Shown: positions 2,893 through 64,000 of the stretch, piece after piece
How the letters are laid out: each line of letters begins with the position of its first letter
Numbering within the stretch: the first letter of the stretch is position 1
Virus record (IMG/VR): IMGVR_UViG_3300006736_000004
Coordinates: 1 to 64,000 of that record
Reading direction: 5' to 3' (one strand)
Source of the DNA: a virus
DNA: 64,000 bases
The notes under the pieces: generated by a model
Databases searched by the model: none
Told to the model about the DNA's origin: nothing
The model's input: the letters and a program-made list of their open reading frames with translations, nothing else
Position numbers and translations under genes: made by a program

Positions 2893-3516
2893 TTAGCCAA
2901 TGGACCCCGAAGCGCATTTCCGGCGGTTGGCGATCCAGCCGGGAATCTTGACTTGACTTGGCGCTTGCCGCTTGGTCGGGGTGAACTTGCTACCGAAGAC
3001 AACCTTGCTTTTTTCCACGGCATTCTTGGCGGCAAGCTCCGTCCAGAAGTTGCCCCACCGTTTCGAGACATGAGGGTCGGGCATCTCGTTGGCGAAGGCA
3101 TGGTCCCGCGCTTCCTTGAGCAAGATCGTCGGCACGTTGGCATCATCAAAGCCTTCCTCAATCGTCTTGTAGTAGCCGTCAGACGGCGGTCCGACATGCT
3201 TCCGGTTCATTACATAGGCCATATAAGTCTTGCCGTCAGCCGTCCAATATTCCTTACGATAGAGACCGCGCAACGGGTCTTCACCGCAAAAGCCTTCGTA
3301 GCGGTCGAGAGCCTTCTCGCAAGCCGGGGTCAATCGCCAAAGAGCAACGGCGCATTTGAAGCCTTCGGCGGGGATCATATCGGCAACCCCTTTGAAGACG
3401 AGACGGTGGTCGGGGAAGTAAGCCGCGCCAAGGTAAGTGGCGGCGGGGCAGCGGACCTTCATGGCGTCCCGGTTCATGTTCGATCCATAGGCCATGTAAA
3501 TTGTTTCGGTGGTCAT
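2893..3516 (-). CDS. Gamma-glutamylcyclotransferase (AIG2-like)
   Basis: YMAYGSNM, RCP.A, LDRYEG and LYRK motifs. Adjacent to an amidoligase. Confidence 0.85.
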   Translation of the reverse strand: MTTETIYMAYGSNMNRDAMKVRCPAATYLGAAYFPDHRLVFKGVADMIPAEGFKCAVALWRLTPACEKALDRYEGFCGEDPLRGLYRKEYWTADGKTYMAYVMNRKHVGPPSDGYYKTIEEGFDDANVPTILLKEARDHAFANEMPDPHVSKRWGNFWTELAAKNAVEKSKVVFGSKFTPTKRQAPSQVKIPGWIANRRKCASGSIG

Positions 3517-3540
3517 TTGATCTCTCCGTTGGTCAAGTGT

Positions 3541-4578
3541 TTAAGCGTTGGCGAAATGTGCGATGCGAGAGCGGAAGAAAGAAACCACCGCGCCATCAAC
3601 ATCTTTGAAAATGTGGTCGGCTTCCAAGGGATCGTTGCCGAAGGTCATCGCCCAAAAGGTCGAGAACTTTTCGGCGTCGAGGTCGTAGGAGTCGGAAGCA
3701 ACATAGATGTCGGTCAACTCTTCTGAAACCCAACCCCGCTCGACACCGTTGGCACCGGAAATTTTCCAATTCTTACCACCGGCATATTTGAACGAGCCGC
3801 CATGAGCTTCGACTTGCTCCCGAAGGGCGGCGTAGGTGGTGGACTTCCGCTTGGCCTTGTAGTTATGGGAGCCGGTGGCCGCGCCGGAAGAAATGGTTTT
3901 GGAAGCGTCGGCAAAGGCGACCAAGAGGCGGACCCAATTGGTCAGCTTGATGGGGTCCGTCGAACCGTTATGGTGGCGGAACTCAATGGTGCCGTTGTTG
4001 TTACGGGTCAAGGCCGAAAGGTTCACCTTCATGAATTTGCCGCCGCCCCGGTTCATGAGAGCATGGAGCGAGTCGCCATAATATTCATCGACCATCGTAA
4101 CGTAACGGGAAATGAGAGAGGCGCAATAACGACCGTTTGAGCCGCGCCGTGAAGCCGCCATGAAACTATCAAAGTCGGTCTCGAAAGAAGCATAGCGAAG
4201 GTAAATGTTTTTGGCATGGGCGGCGGTCCATCCGTCAACCCGGCCAAGATGGACATGAACGCCACAAGCGCGGTCAACATTTACGCCGTCGATGCTATTC
4301 AAAACGTCAAGGGCGGCGGTCAATTTAGCAAGACCGGCTTCGCCTTTAAGGATGGGGGAAACCAACTCGCCGCCCATGCCTTCGCCGGAACGATGATTGT
4401 AACCGCTTGAGGTGACGGTGGCGTCGGTGACGAGCTTCCAAGAGGTGAGGGGAGCGTGGGAGCCGTAGCCGTGAACCTTGGCCCGGATGCCCGCATCGTT
4501 AAGAGCGGCGGCGACCGTGGCGAGACGTGCGCCTTTGAACTCAATCTCTACTCCGAAAGTGTAATCTTGATTTAACAT
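3541..4578 (-). CDS. Putative amidoligase (COOH-NH2 ligase type 2)
   Basis: TFGVEIE, WKLVTDA, ELVSPIL, CGVHVHL and TIEFRHH motifs. Start reassigned to ATG at 4578 behind a GGAGAG RBS. Confidence 0.85.
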   Translation of the reverse strand: MLNQDYTFGVEIEFKGARLATVAAALNDAGIRAKVHGYGSHAPLTSWKLVTDATVTSSGYNHRSGEGMGGELVSPILKGEAGLAKLTAALDVLNSIDGVNVDRACGVHVHLGRVDGWTAAHAKNIYLRYASFETDFDSFMAASRRGSNGRYCASLISRYVTMVDEYYGDSLHALMNRGGGKFMKVNLSALTRNNNGTIEFRHHNGSTDPIKLTNWVRLLVAFADASKTISSGAATGSHNYKAKRKSTTYAALREQVEAHGGSFKYAGGKNWKISGANGVERGWVSEELTDIYVASDSYDLDAEKFSTFWAMTFGNDPLEADHIFKDVDGAVVSFFRSRIAHFANA

Positions 4579-4617: not shown

Positions 4618-4656
4618 TGATGTTGACCACAATAAACATATCAGCGCGGGTGTCAA
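4618..4656 (-). promoter_or_regulatory. Repeated sigma70-like promoter, copy 1
   Basis: TTGACA-16 nt-TATTGT followed by GGTCAACATCA. Same motif at 11576 and 18190. Confidence 0.7.
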
Positions 4657-4797
4657 CCCCTTTTGAAAAAAAGATTTGCGGGTGGGTGGACGGCTGTCTT
4701 GCGGTTCTGACGCCATAGGGGGGGGGTGGCTTCCGTTGACTTCCCATTTCGGCGGCTGTGTGGTATTGATTCCGCGACGGTCTGACATGGGGGAAAA

Positions 4798-5430
4798 ATG
4801 GCAAAGCGGAAAAAGGTTCACTTGACGGTCGATGAATGGCGGCAAGCCCGCGACCTCTATGTGCAGGGCGTCGAGAGCGACACCGGCAAGCGAGTCCATC
4901 CAACGCTTGAAACCTTGGCGGCTGATTTAGGGGTTGGCATCCGGACATTGGAAAACCGGAGTTCGGCTGACGGGTGGGTGAAGCAACGGGAAGATTTCGA
5001 GACCAAGCTCCGGGCAGAGGTGGATGCCAAGAAAAGAAAAACGCTCGCGGCTCAATTGATCGACTTCGATTCGCGGGCGCTTAATCTGGCGACGGCGGTC
5101 CTTGGTCAAATTGGTCGGATCATCAACAATGCGGAGACCCGGCGGCAAGCTGCCCAAGAGGATCGCATGGTCCGCTTCATTAGAAATAGTGAGATAGTGG
5201 AAGAGTTGGTCTTGGCGAAGCCGGACATGGACCCGCTCTCACCGACCTCGCTGACGATGCTCGCCAACGCCGTCTCCGCAAGTCAGAGGGTCGGGCGGCT
5301 CGCGCTTGGCGAATACACGGATAGCACAAAGGTAACAGATGAACGAGCTGACGACGACCTCGCAAGCGCCATTGCCGACCTATTCCAACTTGAAGGCGAC
5401 ATCAAAAAGAACTCTCGAAAACCGCATTAG
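4798..5430 (+). CDS. Terminase small subunit
   Basis: N-terminal HTH (PTLETLAADLGVGIRTLENR..WVKQR), overlapping the terL start. Confidence 0.65.
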   Translation: MAKRKKVHLTVDEWRQARDLYVQGVESDTGKRVHPTLETLAADLGVGIRTLENRSSADGWVKQREDFETKLRAEVDAKKRKTLAAQLIDFDSRALNLATAVLGQIGRIINNAETRRQAAQEDRMVRFIRNSEIVEELVLAKPDMDPLSPTSLTMLANAVSASQRVGRLALGEYTDSTKVTDERADDDLASAIADLFQLEGDIKKNSRKPH

Positions 5431-60164: not shown

Positions 60165-60857
60165 TTAAGTGGTTCTTTCGTGCTGTTCACGAAGGTGCTG
60201 TAGATAATTAAAGGCCGTTTGGTAATCGCCTTCAGTGGCGTCCTTGCGTTGTACGGATTCAGCAAAGGTATTGTAGTTATCCCATTCGTCAAAGTCAGGG
60301 TCATTTGCTGAAATAGTGGCGGCGTATTGCACTAATTCCATTACGATTTGCTTCATGTTGATTTCTCCTATGCGTAAAGATCAACCTTTTTGACCGGCGC
60401 ATATATTTCGGTAACGGTAAACTCCGCGCCGGTCTTTTCGATTGATAGGGTTGCAAGCCTTTTTTCTGGTAGACGATTCAACCAATCCCGCAAGGCTATA
60501 GCATCGGGAAAGACTCTCGTTGGTGTAATAAGCATATTCATTTCCTCCGCAGCCACATTAGGCATTGAAGGATTAACAACGGGTTAACCCGCTTCATGTT
60601 GCACCGGGTTCCAAGCGGTGCAAAGTGAAAGGGGTTTAGCGTAGAAGCCTTTGAGCGTGATGGGCTTTCACCAAGGCATGATCTAAGGCGGCTTTATCGG
60701 CGGCGTAAATAGCTTCGCCGCCCTCGCCATAGTGGTTGGCATCGTCCTTTGACCCATAGCGTTCAACGTAAGCAACAATGTTGCCGCCGTGACTGTCGAA
60801 CCAATCACGCTGGCTGTAGAAGTGGTTAAGCCAAAAGACGGCTTGTTTTTTAGTCAT
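60165..60857 (-). CDS. Three small early genes (60165-60356, 60368-~60540, 60636-60857)
   Basis: Tandem minus-strand ORFs with purine-rich leaders. Confidence 0.55.
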
Positions 60858-61102
60858 ATCAACTCGCTTTCAGAAGTGGGGAATCCACTTCAAAATGCAC
60901 CGTTTAAACGATGCATCCTGAAAGGGATTAGACGTTACGCATTCTCTCCAATGCCTTCGCAGCATCAGGGGTTGAGCGTAACGCAGCTAGCATTGCGTCA
61001 ATGATTTCGGTAATCGTGCGTTTTTTCATAGTGTCTCGCTTTCAGAAACGGCTAATCCGTTTCCGCGATAGCCGCTCCTTAACGGCTATCTAGGAAAGGG
61101 GT

Positions 61103-61678
61103 TTAAGCGGCGAGTTTCTTAGGGTTAATCCAATCGGGTTTTTCCGTTGTTAGGATTGACCGCATAGGCATAACAACCGTGAATACATCATGGTCATTGT
61201 TGTAGCCCACCCAATGCGGTGAGCTTGCATCATTGCCGGTAATGAGAATGGCTGATTTACCAAGGATTTTGGCGGTTGTTGCGATTCTGGTAAGGATGGC
61301 CTCACCGAAGGCGGCATTTGAAGCGGTGCCGATTTCATCCGGCAATACTCTACGCCAATCGGGAAAAGTACCATCAATGGCTTTGCATGGTTCAATATGC
61401 AGAACGGCGTCATATTCACCATTGACTTGCAACTGGTCATTTTCGATCACTACGTTGGTTGCGGTCTTTTTCTTCATGGCGGTAATGGCTTTTTTAGATA
61501 CCGGATAAATGCCTGATTCGTTGTCGGCAGTTGCGTCATATCCGGCGGTGAGCATATGCCCGTCCGTTGCAACTGCTACACTCCCCTCAAAATAAACACC
61601 GCAAAGGTAATAGCGGGTTTCTTCGATTCCTTGAGCAATCGCAACGGCGGCTAGTTTTTGTGCATCAAATGTTATCAC
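61103..61678 (-). CDS. Truncated DNA polymerase III beta-clamp-like protein
   Basis: ETRYYLCGVYF, VATDGH.L and IDGTFPDWRRVLP motifs, GTG start behind AGGAGA. Confidence 0.75.
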   Translation of the reverse strand: MITFDAQKLAAVAIAQGIEETRYYLCGVYFEGSVAVATDGHMLTAGYDATADNESGIYPVSKKAITAMKKKTATNVVIENDQLQVNGEYDAVLHIEPCKAIDGTFPDWRRVLPDEIGTASNAAFGEAILTRIATTAKILGKSAILITGNDASSPHWVGYNNDHDVFTVVMPMRSILTTEKPDWINPKKLAA

Positions 61679-61756
61679 GGTTTTTCTCCTATGGTTGGTG
61701 GTTGGGGTAATTTCAAAGCCTTTTGAAGTGTCCACCTGTTAAAGTGGACAAGTTGA

Positions 61757-61987
61757 TTAGGTGAGATTGTCGAGAAATGATTGCGGCACCTCTTTTGCAT
61801 TGGCACCGTCAAGCCATTGGTTGATATGTTTGGAAGTGGTAACAGAGTATTTTTGTTCCGTTCGCACGAATCCTGAACCGTCATTCATGCAAGCGGCCAC
61901 GGGTGTTTTGTAGGAAAAGAAAACGGTTGTTCCGTTGGATAGCTCTATCTCGTTTTTGTTTGCGCCTAATGGGTTCAATTTTACCAT
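61757..61987 (-). CDS. Small early protein (FSYKTPVA..YSVTTSKHIN.W family)
   Basis: Common phage motif, GGAGG RBS. Confidence 0.7.
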   Translation of the reverse strand: MVKLNPLGANKNEIELSNGTTVFFSYKTPVAACMNDGSGFVRTEQKYSVTTSKHINQWLDGANAKEVPQSFLDNLT

Positions 61988-62077
61988 GGTTGATTCCTCC
62001 GAATATGGCGAACACATCAAAGGGCTTTGAATGGGACTCCTTAACAGTGCCAAGCCGTTAAGCTTGACACCTTGGTT

Positions 62078-62452
62078 TTAGTAGCCACGGGTTATAATGG
62101 TTTCTTTTTTCGCAATGGCAGAGGCGAAGGCGTTAACCATTTGAGCCTCGCCGCCTCGTTCATGTAATTTTACATAGCATACCCAATTACCAGCGAAAGC
62201 ATTAGGCTTGCCGGGTTTCGCCTCGACTTGCTGATAATTAAGGCCAAGGCGGGTTTGTGTATTTTCGCCAGCAATCAGGTCTTTAAGGCGGGATAGAACG
62301 GAATCAATAAACTCTTGCGAGCCTTCGATTCTGACACCATCCGCGCCATACGTTGAACCAGAATGTTTATATGGGATAACGTCCTGATTGACCGGCTGGT
62401 TCTCTTGTAGGCCCTGCCAATGGTTTAGTGCTTGTGATTTTGACATACGCAT
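62078..62452 (-). CDS. Hypothetical early protein
   Basis: AAGGAG RBS, enclosed by inverted-repeat pair 2. Confidence 0.65.
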   Translation of the reverse strand: MRMSKSQALNHWQGLQENQPVNQDVIPYKHSGSTYGADGVRIEGSQEFIDSVLSRLKDLIAGENTQTRLGLNYQQVEAKPGKPNAFAGNWVCYVKLHERGGEAQMVNAFASAIAKKETIITRGY

Positions 62453-62544
62453 AACATTTTACTCCTTTCACAGATTGACACTGTAAAAGAGTCCCTTGCT
62501 ACTCATGCTCTTCAATGTGACAAGCCTAAGCCTGTCACTATGGT

Positions 62545-62727
62545 TTACAGCAATTCGCCCTTGCCGTTAAAATATGGTCCAGATACGTAGGCTTGTACTG
62601 CCCAGCCCCTACCATAAGATATTACACGCCAATTGGGGAATCCTTTGCCGTATTTTGCCCCATGATCTCGTGCGTCGTTGAAATCATGGAAGTAGGCAAC
62701 GTCTTTATATTCCTTGAATTTCGCCAT
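62545..62727 (-). CDS. Hypothetical early protein
   Basis: Enclosed by inverted-repeat pair 3. Confidence 0.6.
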   Translation of the reverse strand: MAKFKEYKDVAYFHDFNDARDHGAKYGKGFPNWRVISYGRGWAVQAYVSGPYFNGKGELL

Positions 62728-62826
62728 AATATTACCCTTTCAATGTTTTAAGGTTGCCACATTGAAAAGCATGAGTTTTCTCATATCCTTAGAAGTGACA
62801 AACCGTCTAAGGTTCGCCACTGTTAG

Positions 62827-63174
62827 TCAAGAAAACCGCTTTGAGATATTATCACGGATACCCTTGTTAATACCTTCGTCGAAGGCTTCCCATAGTTCTT
62901 CCGAATTTTCCGCTTCGTTGAAATCGTGGGCAGTAAACTCGAATGGCGTAAATTGCCTATCGTTTTCTTCCGAATCATACGCCATCAATTCCATTGCCTC
63001 AATTTGATCTTCTTCCGATTCGATAGTGCCTACGCCAACCCAATCTATATGTTTGGGAAGCTCATAGCCAATTTCAGGTATATCAATCCAAGACGCTATA
63101 TTGAATCCACGATTGAAACCCATTTCGGAAGCCTCGTTGACGTCGATGGTTACGAGATTATCTATTGCAAACAT
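62827..63174 (-). CDS. Highly acidic early protein
   Basis: Asp/Glu-rich 115 aa, enclosed by inverted-repeat pair 4. Confidence 0.65.
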   Translation of the reverse strand: MFAIDNLVTIDVNEASEMGFNRGFNIASWIDIPEIGYELPKHIDWVGVGTIESEEDQIEAMELMAYDSEENDRQFTPFEFTAHDFNEAENSEELWEAFDEGINKGIRDNISKRFS

Positions 63175-63257
63175 AACATTTCCCCTTTGTTGCAGATTGT
63201 CACATCAAAGGATATGAGTTGAACACTACTCTTTAAACGTGGCGAATCAATTAGGGG

Positions 63258-63440
63258 TTAATCGAAATCCACAACATCGTCATAGGTATCGTAATTGGAA
63301 TCGGTGAAGATTTCGGGGCGGTATCCTTTGAGCTTTTCCTTTTCACATTGTTTGCAAACATAGGCCACAAATATACCTCTTGCATCGTGTACGGCATTAG
63401 GCCATTCGCCAGAGCCGCAGGGGCATTCTCGTAAGGTCAT
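63258..63440 (-). CDS. Small Zn-binding protein (CPCGSG..DARGI..CxxC)
   Basis: Cys motifs. Confidence 0.65.
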   Translation of the reverse strand: MTLRECPCGSGEWPNAVHDARGIFVAYVCKQCEKEKLKGYRPEIFTDSNYDTYDDVVDFD

Positions 63441-63646
63441 AGGCCAATCCTCATTACCTTGAATTTATTGTATGTATGGTTACGGTGGATTTGAGCGGTA
63501 TCTTGTTTCCCCGTGCCACGGCAAGAATAACAGGTGCCGGATTTACGAGGTTTACCGTTAACAGTACCGCCAAACGAATAAACACCAGTGCCACGGCATT
63601 TTACACATTCACCGGGCTTGCTGTTAGGTTGTGACATATCATACAT
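63437..63646 (-). CDS. DnaJ-type zinc-finger protein
   Basis: Two CxxCxGxG motifs. Confidence 0.65.
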   Translation of the reverse strand: MYDMSQPNSKPGECVKCRGTGVYSFGGTVNGKPRKSGTCYSCRGTGKQDTAQIHRNHTYNKFKVMRIGL

Positions 63647-64000
63647 GGTAAAGCCTTTCGGATTCGCCACATTAAAAGAGTAGTGCCGGAAACCGCACAT
63701 AACTAACACGGCGCGATTCCCTGCCCTTGGCCGCCGTAGTGGCCGCCCGTAAATGCAGTTCCTAATTCAATAGATCAAAACCGCCACATAAAACGCAGTG
63801 GCGTCTCCCAGCAAAGGCGCGAAAATGAGCCAAGGGGTAGCACTCTAATTCGGGGGGAAATGATATTCCTCATCGAACGTACATGATGGCAGCTAAGGCC
63901 AAAATTCCGCGACGAATCGCGAACAAGATGATTATGCACAGATAATCAACAGAATGTATATAGCTAATATCAAGATATACCCTTTATTTTCCCGCATTCC

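Follow-up and report, generated by a model that had tools for sequence, protein, structure and literature searches.

Sites for ribonuclease III (RNase III) are reportedly placed between the genes of the early region of phage T7, a description that goes back to Dunn and Studier. In this study we analysed the first 64 kb (positions 1 to 64,000, here called the window) of the IMG/VR virus record IMGVR_UViG_3300006736_000004, which has 79,107 bp and is rated complete, and characterized a chain of five long-range inverted repeats between positions 61,712 and 63,685. Each pair of arms, named P1 to P5 in the direction of transcription, brackets one gene or, in P1, two genes of a minus-strand operon, and the two arms of a pair are predicted to form a helix in the messenger RNA. 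Long-range duplexes are known RNase III substrates in other settings: they are cut in rRNA precursors (PMC6582327), they act as substrates within mRNAs of Bacillus subtilis (PMC11780869), and in icaR the pairing of the 5′ with the 3′ untranslated region (UTR) creates such a substrate (PMC3868564). At the DNA level, the elements to be compared are the PeSLs of T4-type phages, each composed of a sigma-70 promoter and a terminator stem-loop in direct orientation (PMC2839356, PMC4122927), and the attC cassettes of integrons.

As in the 16S and 23S stems of rrn operons (PMC6582327), flanking sequences are predicted to form a long-range helix of a length suited to RNase III, and several helices follow one another on one polycistronic precursor. 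At this locus the predicted helices have 24–29 bp and −31 to −39 kcal/mol, compared with a minimum of about 20 bp for a stem of the rRNA type. Unlike the rrn stems, the chain encloses protein-coding cistrons with the Shine–Dalgarno (SD) sequence just inside the helix, its five members abut within 1–5 nt and carry unique outer sequences (addresses) on a shared core, and cleavage is here something that we infer. A BoxA (NusB/NusE) antitermination signal ahead of the stem was not found; only the P4 arm came within three mismatches of GCTCTTTAACAA, its antisense partner matched equally well, and the motif would sit inside the helix. With the T7 sites the locus shares a phage operon of small genes and a double-stranded element at each cistron junction, and the downstream half (60586–61102) as well as a related contig, L162, use such local hairpins. 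In the chain, by contrast, the two strands of a helix are on opposite sides of the gene and not adjacent, and cleavage would leave the mRNA's own ends paired. A T7-type local inter-cistron hairpin of about 20 bp with an internal loop was not detected in the chain, where adjacent arms reach −10.6 to −19.3 kcal/mol. The pairing in icaR is likewise intramolecular, spans hundreds of nucleotides between the UTRs and yields a duplex substrate. However, the icaR 3′ UTR pairs with the SD itself and represses, whereas the pairing described here is located immediately 5′ of the SD and may have the reverse effect: blocking of the SD by the 3′ UTR was not seen in our models, in which SD accessibility rises or is unchanged upon helix closure. 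Moreover, cases of the icaR type are single genes, and here a chain with a shared core is found.

Similar to the arms, PeSLs are short conserved motifs flanking small accessory genes, and close relatives differ by whole motif-bounded units (PMC2839356, PMC4122927). The arms differ from them in lacking a promoter and a terminator, in being inverted and in carrying pair-specific complementary addresses. A search for promoter–terminator modules showed no enrichment, with 11 promoter-like sites (8.6 expected) and eight terminator-like sites (6.1 expected), none of them at an arm. Integron attC cassettes also form promoterless arrays of single genes and are bounded by imperfect inverted repeats whose outer boxes are conserved and whose complementary inner parts vary. 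In contrast to integrons, the locus lacks an integrase, a GTTRRRY core and a fixed G/TT crossover, its repeats enclose the gene instead of making up a local attC, and the strand bias described below fits an mRNA. Neither integron core sites (RYYYAAC/GTTRRRY) nor a fixed crossover were present at the unit borders, and no match to PF00589 or PF00239, the tyrosine and serine recombinase families, was obtained in the 79-kb record, while control genomes matched. An Rfam search returned nothing. Although the components (rRNA stems, T7 RNase III sites, 5′–3′ UTR pairing and PeSL shuffling) are known, in the searchable literature we found no account of a phage operon with a chain of gene-bracketing helices. 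The distinguishing features are the chain of five units, the design of an address on a core, the paired local decoy hairpins and the direct evidence of arm-to-arm cassette exchange.

Five abutting arm pairs with unique addresses

An earlier note on this DNA, made from the letters alone, had listed five arm pairs with a common core and pair-specific outer parts, each pair ending 1–5 nt before the next begins. By an inverted-repeat search and match counts, the coordinates and the complementarity were reproduced exactly (Table 1), with 21/25, 18/21, 21/23, 21/24 and 23/25 Watson–Crick matches for P5, P4, P3, P2 and P1 respectively. Core and addresses were present as claimed, and the measured gaps between neighbouring arms were 1, 5, 3 and 5 nt (A, AGCAA, AAA and TTCAA). 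The five pairs rank at the top of the inverted repeats found in the region, where P3, P1, P4, P5 and P2 appear as I1, I2, I3, I5 and I6. The arms are confined to the untranslated spacers, the 5′ arm shortly preceding the SD and the 3′ arm following the stop codon. On the transcribed strand each spacer consists of the stop codon, a short hairpin (not in P1), the 3′ arm, 1–5 nt, the next 5′ arm, the SD and the ATG. An SD-like tract (AAGGAG, AAGGA or AAGAG) is present in every 3′ arm, and its complement in every 5′ arm. In four of the five helices an unpaired position occurs 10–12 bp from the outer end.

A chance origin of the arm pairs is excluded. When all 79,107 bp were scanned for ungapped inverted repeats with at least 19 Watson–Crick pairs in 22 positions and a distance of 100–700 nt, five pairs were found, compared with a mean of 0.05 in 20 Markov-1 random genomes. 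Four of them belong to the chain, P4 (18/21) being just under the cut, and the remaining one (65162–65183/65310–65331) is located beyond the end of the window, in a repeat array at 65.1–65.3 kb. A chain detector set to 17/20 reported nine pairs in the genome, five of which make up one uninterrupted chain. The array itself (65100–65400) is a dense series of GTTCACGTTTTGTTCC-type repeats in both orientations and gives rise to the only other strong long-range inverted repeat of the genome.

Pairing is specific for the partner across the gene. The duplex energies of the five cognate pairs ranged from −30.8 to −39.0 kcal/mol and those of non-cognate combinations from −7.3 to −23.3 kcal/mol. The outcome that the earlier note had named as a refutation, arms pairing no better with their own partner than with other arms, was thus not observed. 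For nine stems from four phages the cognate mean was −34.9 kcal/mol, compared with a non-cognate mean of −13.2 kcal/mol (standard deviation 4.1). Flanks of 90 nt compared by duplexfold gave no separation (mean of non-cognate combinations −31 kcal/mol), and ungapped 20-nt windows were used in their place. Neighbouring arms, only 1–5 nt apart and hence kinetically favoured, pair at just −10.6 to −19.3 kcal/mol and thus weakly compared with cognate arms, which indicates that the unique outer 7–10 nt direct pairing across the gene.

Predicted fold of the sense transcript

All five stems were present in the minimum free energy fold of the 2,111-nt sense RNA. In the ensemble of this RNA their mean pair probabilities were 0.57–0.91, with the outer halves close to 1.0. 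By contrast, the probability of the P4 helix fell to 0.04 in the plus-strand RNA ensemble, and for all five pairs the duplex was more stable as minus-strand than as plus-strand RNA. Counted on the sense strand, the non-Watson–Crick positions of the five stems include nine G-U and one A-C; with the stems of relatives and the local hairpins included, the numbers are 16 and 1 (one-sided p = 1.4e-4). Since a symmetric double-stranded DNA site would give no such bias, the excess of G-U over A-C on the sense strand argues that the transcribed strand folds as RNA. In the predicted fold of the sense transcript every cistron is looped out, each on a separate helix of about 24 bp. The earlier note had proposed such a fold, which agrees with the address-specific and strand-specific pairing and with compensating changes in an ortholog (see below).

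The local hairpins that the note had seen in competition with the 3′ arms exist in four units (P2–P5, not P1), and three of them require G-U pairs on the minus-strand RNA. They begin 5–7 nt past the stop codon, have no U tract and use the inner part of the 3′ arm as their 3′ half. Their energies are −13.4 to −16.3 kcal/mol as minus-strand RNA compared with −8.6 to −12.5 kcal/mol as plus-strand RNA.

Covariation and distribution in related phages

The most informative relative is L168, a marine contig of 1,240 nt encoding a P4 protein of 90% identity. Its P4-unit helix has −38.4 kcal/mol, compared with −37.8 kcal/mol in the window, and 12–15 kcal/mol are lost when arms of the two phages are combined (−23.0 and −26.3 kcal/mol). 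The address has changed to GGCTAGACTCC/GGAGTCTAGC from GGGACTC/GAGTCCC in the window, and in the part next to the core two base pairs are changed on both sides (ACAGUG/CACUGU to GUAGUG/CACUAC). The covariation that the note had wished to see in related phages is thus found in this ortholog, which appears to keep the helix by two double compensatory changes.

The stems had also been called gene-specific. This is correct for the pairing, which is address-specific, but not for a tie to a gene family, as homologs mostly have no brackets. A bond to the family of the P5 cargo gene was rejected: 73 homologs showed no bracket above the non-cognate background. A bond to the P4 family was rejected as well, with no gene-spanning bracket in 70 of the 71 testable homologs, L168 being the exception. 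Contig L162, whose P4 cargo protein is 66% identical, has a single bracket around its first, different gene; core and hairpin module are as in the window, yet the address is another one. Its other junctions, including both sides of the P4-cargo homolog, are local hairpins of the form TCCCTTTCAA-[variable stem]-TTTTGAAGTGGATT. The sole other chain that the detector reported in 1.3 Mb of related loci is in L012, where the clamp-like gene that follows the chain in the window has a homolog of 36% identity. There, two brackets abut at a distance of 1 nt. The arm sequence is unrelated to that of the window; the 5′ arm again stands just ahead of the SD, and the 3′ arm again shares its inner end with a short hairpin. 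A scan with the local-hairpin core pattern retrieved only the contig of L162 and two AT-rich chance matches, and the hairpin module of the gene-spanning class had one unrelated match in species-representative genomes.

In five loci with homologs of the 124-aa gene of P4 (L226, L228, L229, L231 and L232) a nearly identical perfect palindrome of 30 nt, GGTGCTGAGCACGTTTAAACGTGCTCAGCATT, occupies every spacer of the small-gene operon. This lineage has a different solution for a duplex at every cistron junction. Judged from these genomes, a duplex at each cistron junction recurs in the phage group, and the gene-spanning topology is the rare form of it. Two distant relatives carry further inverted repeats that span genes: L171 has two interleaved pairs at 3076–3941 (3076–3107/3861–3892 and 3423–3444/3920–3941), and L219 has two nested pairs at 4618–5014, which jointly make an interrupted helix of about 50 bp around approximately 290 nt.

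Exchange of arm-to-arm units

Close relatives differ from the window by whole units. Over window positions 63,775–63,205, which comprise the leader, the P1 unit and the initial 14 nt of the P2 5′ arm, L168 is 99.3% identical to the window. It then jumps to a P4 unit that is only 82.9% identical in a block (62,493–62,035) ending no more than 2 nt from the arm ends. L168 has neither a P2 nor a P3 unit, and its P4 unit is followed by a different gene. A contig from metagenome X3 is nearly identical over 61,703–63,218; precisely where the P2 5′ arm has its outer end, the sequence changes to that of a new arm, ACTCTCGC-CCTTAAGCGTGACAAGCC. Since the complement of this new arm abuts the P1 3′ arm on a second X3 contig, an extra unit between P2 and P1 is indicated. 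Some short contigs have only the arms in common with the window, and in one population the sequence on the gene side of both P1 arms is unlike the P1 genes of the window, a further sign that the stems are not tied to particular genes. The breakpoints in relatives were located within an arm, at an arm end or just inside an arm. The gain, loss or reordering of cassettes as discrete units between close relatives, which is typical of integrons, is therefore seen in L168 and X3. In the contig layouts of four metagenomes no inverted, excised or circular joints were present, the earlier note having proposed to look for inverted or excised cassettes; contigs are a weak witness here, as they cannot show rare forms.

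The DNA-level cassette pattern is real and is most simply explained by ordinary phage mosaicism that is filtered by selection for intact RNA modules. Shared cores serving as recombination homology are possible.

Proposed mechanism and alternative explanations

On balance, though with modest confidence, we favour the interpretation that the arms are RNA elements of the sense transcript. They would make self-closing mRNA modules, probably cut by host RNase III, with cleavage, protection of ends and effects on translation as the expected consequences. A unit would read, in order, address, shared core, SD, cistron or cistrons, stop codon, short hairpin, complementary core and complementary address. 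Once it is fully transcribed, its 5′ UTR would pair with its own 3′ UTR in a helix of 24–29 bp, the coding part being looped out, and the polycistronic RNA would become a chain of five abutting helices in which each unit is a folding domain of its own. The unique outer 7–10 nt would steer a 5′ arm across the gene to its own 3′ arm and not to the adjacent arm. Host RNase III would then cut the helices and release single-unit mRNAs whose two ends are still paired. As a secondary layer, the C/U tract of the 5′ arm may instead pair with its own SD, and closure of the helix via the SD-like 3′ arm may open the ribosome site. In addition, related marine phages exchange genes in just these arm-to-arm units. 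The host enzyme is the most likely cutter because the helices have the length of a substrate for a double-strand RNase and the phage encodes no RNase III; a search of the phage proteins revealed neither this enzyme nor a double-stranded RNA-binding domain. Circularisable mRNAs, which the earlier note had considered, received no support, as the RNA ligase RtcB is not encoded by the phage.

Several points weigh against this interpretation. Part of the 16 G-U positions are homologous to one another and hence not independent, and covariation between true orthologs comes from one stem (L168), the remainder being a comparison of paralogous stems. The inner half of the P2 helix has an ensemble probability of about 0.24, and competition with the local hairpin is visible there. 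Furthermore, translating ribosomes and local hairpins formed co-transcriptionally could block long-range helices. Finally, the arms also act as conserved islands and cassette borders in the DNA, which fits a role in recombination.

A different view is that the primary role of the arms is at the DNA level, either as halves of folded single-stranded recombination sites as in integrons or as portable homology for modular shuffling as with the T4 PeSLs, RNA pairing being a by-product. The absence of the P2 and P3 units from L168 with a P4 block ending next to the arm ends, the divergence of X3 at the outer end of the P2 5′ arm with an extra cassette indicated, the short contigs sharing arms alone and the relationship by circular permutation described below all agree with it. 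However, the record holds no tyrosine or serine recombinase and the arms no promoter or terminator, a conserved crossover motif is missing (the spacers differ and the breakpoints vary), and the contigs of the four metagenomes contain no inverted, excised or circular joints. Pairing over 250–440 nt would require long single-stranded DNA, and the prevalence of G-U over A-C on the sense strand, together with arm positions tied to SD and stop codons, points to the transcript. Selection for intact RNA modules alone would yield mosaic borders from arm to arm. We regard a primary DNA role as distinctly unlikely. Of the single-stranded DNA cassette-recombination code suggested in the earlier note, the evolutionary pattern of whole-unit differences holds, whereas recombinase, fixed crossover and inverted or excised joints are lacking. 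Operators for a DNA-binding protein with the half-site GTGNCAA/TTGNCAC would account for the occurrence of the shared core as dyads (GTGACAGGC-TTAG-GCTTGTCAC) with three half-sites per spacer. They leave unexplained why unique, mutually complementary addresses occur 250–440 nt apart, and also the G-U bias of the sense strand and the compensatory change in L168. Functionless relics of chance or duplication belong to the same very improbable group, chance being contradicted by the random genomes (5 compared with 0.05 pairs).

A translational switch or insulator that works without cleavage is a further explanation, in our opinion an unlikely one. Here the anti-SD-like C/U tract of the 5′ arm would hide the SD until the 3′ arm with its SD mimic is transcribed and captures the tract, and the local 3′ hairpin, which terminating ribosomes could melt, would tune the availability of the 3′ arm. 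The SD-like motifs in every 3′ arm and their complements in every 5′ arm are in line with this, as is the overlap of local hairpins with the inner half of the 3′ arm in four of the five units and also in L012 and L162. When the intergenic region was folded alone, the 5′ arm paired with the next SD in P3, P4 and P5. Removal of the 5′ arm raised the predicted SD unpaired probability to 0.28 (P2) and 0.72 (P3), and an intact 3′ arm, compared with a shuffled one, raised the modelled SD accessibility from about 3-fold to more than 50-fold in P2–P4. On the other hand, no effect was predicted in P1 and P5, P4 stayed closed on removal of the 5′ arm, and the absolute accessibility did not exceed 0.055 even with the helix closed. 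A clear pairing of 5′ arm and SD is missing in L012 and L162, and a 25-bp helix with a unique address far exceeds what titration of 7–10 nt would need. The switch cascade that the earlier note had envisaged is consequently reflected by the models for P2 and P3 (5′ arm) and for P2–P4 (3′ arm), but not for P1 and P5, and at low absolute values. Sequestration of the SD as a general rule was rejected, as the modelling results were mixed across units.

If the helices form and are cut as the RNA interpretation supposes, the locus would represent an organization of phage operons in which each accessory gene comes with an rRNA-style processing stem. The messages, each of a single gene and protected at both ends, would be expressed independently of their neighbours. 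This could explain how small phage genes, often involved in host takeover or counter-defence, are freely shuffled without loss of expression, and synthetic operons could borrow this natural design to insulate their genes. By adding a unique outer helix to a common core, the address principle would let many similar long-range pairings form side by side on a single RNA without cross-talk. The phenomenon may be general.

Local and gene-spanning junctions

Downstream of the chain the junctions at 60586–60635, 60882–60927 and 61054–61102 (minus strand) have long local hairpins directly after the stop codon. They consist of (A/T)CCCTTTC, a variable covarying stem and a GAAGTGGATT-like sequence, and their outer parts resemble the cores of the long-range arms. 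Four junctions of L162 are of the same type. The 3′ halves of the downstream junctions are able to form a second small hairpin just before the next ribosome-binding site. With conserved outer and variable inner parts these hairpins resemble the layout of attC.

The piece preceding the SD is alike in both kinds of junction (CCTTTGATGTGACAATC in gene-spanning and CTTTTGAAGTGGATT in local ones), and so is its complement after the stop codon. The middle is variable: it is self-complementary in local junctions, and in the chain it is made up of two addresses, first that of the previous unit and then that of the next. From the similar outer pieces and the differing middles it follows that a gene-spanning unit is a circular permutation of a gene plus one local junction hairpin. 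A tentative and rather doubtful extension is that both belong to portable self-closing expression cassettes, in which one family of junction elements takes two circularly permuted topologies, the local hairpin between genes and the helix spanning a gene, and the address code picks between them. Each gene would then travel with its own insulating and processing helix and work in any neighbourhood, an equivalent of integron cassettes at the RNA level without a recombinase.

Genomic context and cargo genes

The record encodes tail fibre, head-closure, exonuclease, DnaB-type helicase and replication-initiator proteins, and its DNA was found in marine metagenomes of many studies. At least twelve marine runs contain part of the operon, and no RNA run was among the public runs listed for the stretch. 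The chain is part of a leftward minus-strand operon of small genes running from approximately 63,646 down to 58,700, with a plus-strand replication block on one side and a plus-strand block starting at 64,315 on the other. The operon starts at a divergent non-coding region (63,686–64,314). That the genes are early we infer only from position, as the leftward small-gene operon is located beside this divergent control region. Blastn of the region against a phage collection gave no matches.

Table 1. Features of the chain in the order of transcription.
Feature	Position	Strand	Remarks
P1 5′ arm	63661–63685	−	address CACTACTC, core CTTTTAATGTGGCGAATC; lies 14 nt ahead of the start codon (ATG) of cargo gene 1
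P1 cargo gene 1	63437–63646	−	69-aa protein with two CxxCxGxG zinc-finger motifs (DnaJ-like)
P1 cargo gene 2	63258–63440	−	60-aa Cys-rich protein (CxC...CxxC); 4-nt overlap with gene 1 (63437–63440)
P1 3′ arm	63224–63248	−	23/25 Watson–Crick and one G-U with the 5′ arm; mean ensemble pair probability 0.91
P2 5′ arm	63195–63218	−	address CTCATATCC
P2 cargo gene	62827–63174	−	acidic protein of 115 aa, no family match
P2 local 3′-UTR hairpin	62794–62821	−	AGUGGCGAACC/GGUUUGUCACU; competes for inner half of P2 3′ arm; −15.6 kcal/mol as minus-strand, −8.6 as plus-strand RNA
P2 3′ arm	62780–62803	−	inner half overlapped by the local hairpin
P3 5′ arm	62748–62776	−	address ACTCATGC; C/U tract able to pair with SD of own gene
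P3 cargo gene	62545–62727	−	60 aa, no family match
P3 local 3′-UTR hairpin	62517–62538	−	competes for P3 3′ arm
P3 3′ arm	62501–62529	−	29-nt arms; all positions but one paired, including G-U
P4 5′ arm	62467–62495	−	address GGGACTC
P4 cargo gene	62078–62452	−	124 aa; member of a widespread uncharacterised phage family
P4 local 3′-UTR hairpin	62047–62070	−	competes for P4 3′ arm
P4 3′ arm	62033–62061	−	−36.3 kcal/mol; far weaker as plus-strand RNA (−23.2)
P5 5′ arm	62007–62031	−	address TTCAAAGCC
P5 cargo gene	61757–61987	−	protein of about 76 aa, family phrog_5643
P5 local 3′-UTR hairpin	61729–61750	−	competes for P5 3′ arm; all Watson–Crick
P5 3′ arm	61712–61736	−	last arm of the chain; upstream of the clamp-like gene
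Clamp-like gene	61103–61681	−	192 aa; sliding-clamp-like families; follows the chain

Searches of PHROGs, Pfam, PADLOC and PDB revealed no function for the cargo proteins of P2, P3 and P4. The product of the clamp-like gene matched the central domain PF02767 with E = 2.8e-5, which is below Pfam's cut-off, and phrog_947. A stronger match was obtained with phrog_3007, whose label, RusA-like resolvase, looks doubtful. Both P1 cargo proteins, with which the operon begins, are very small, rich in Cys and of the zinc-ribbon type. A further indel at a junction separates the last 3′ arm from the clamp-like gene: in place of 19 nt at 61683–61703, a nearly identical strain in metagenome X3 carries 265 other letters.

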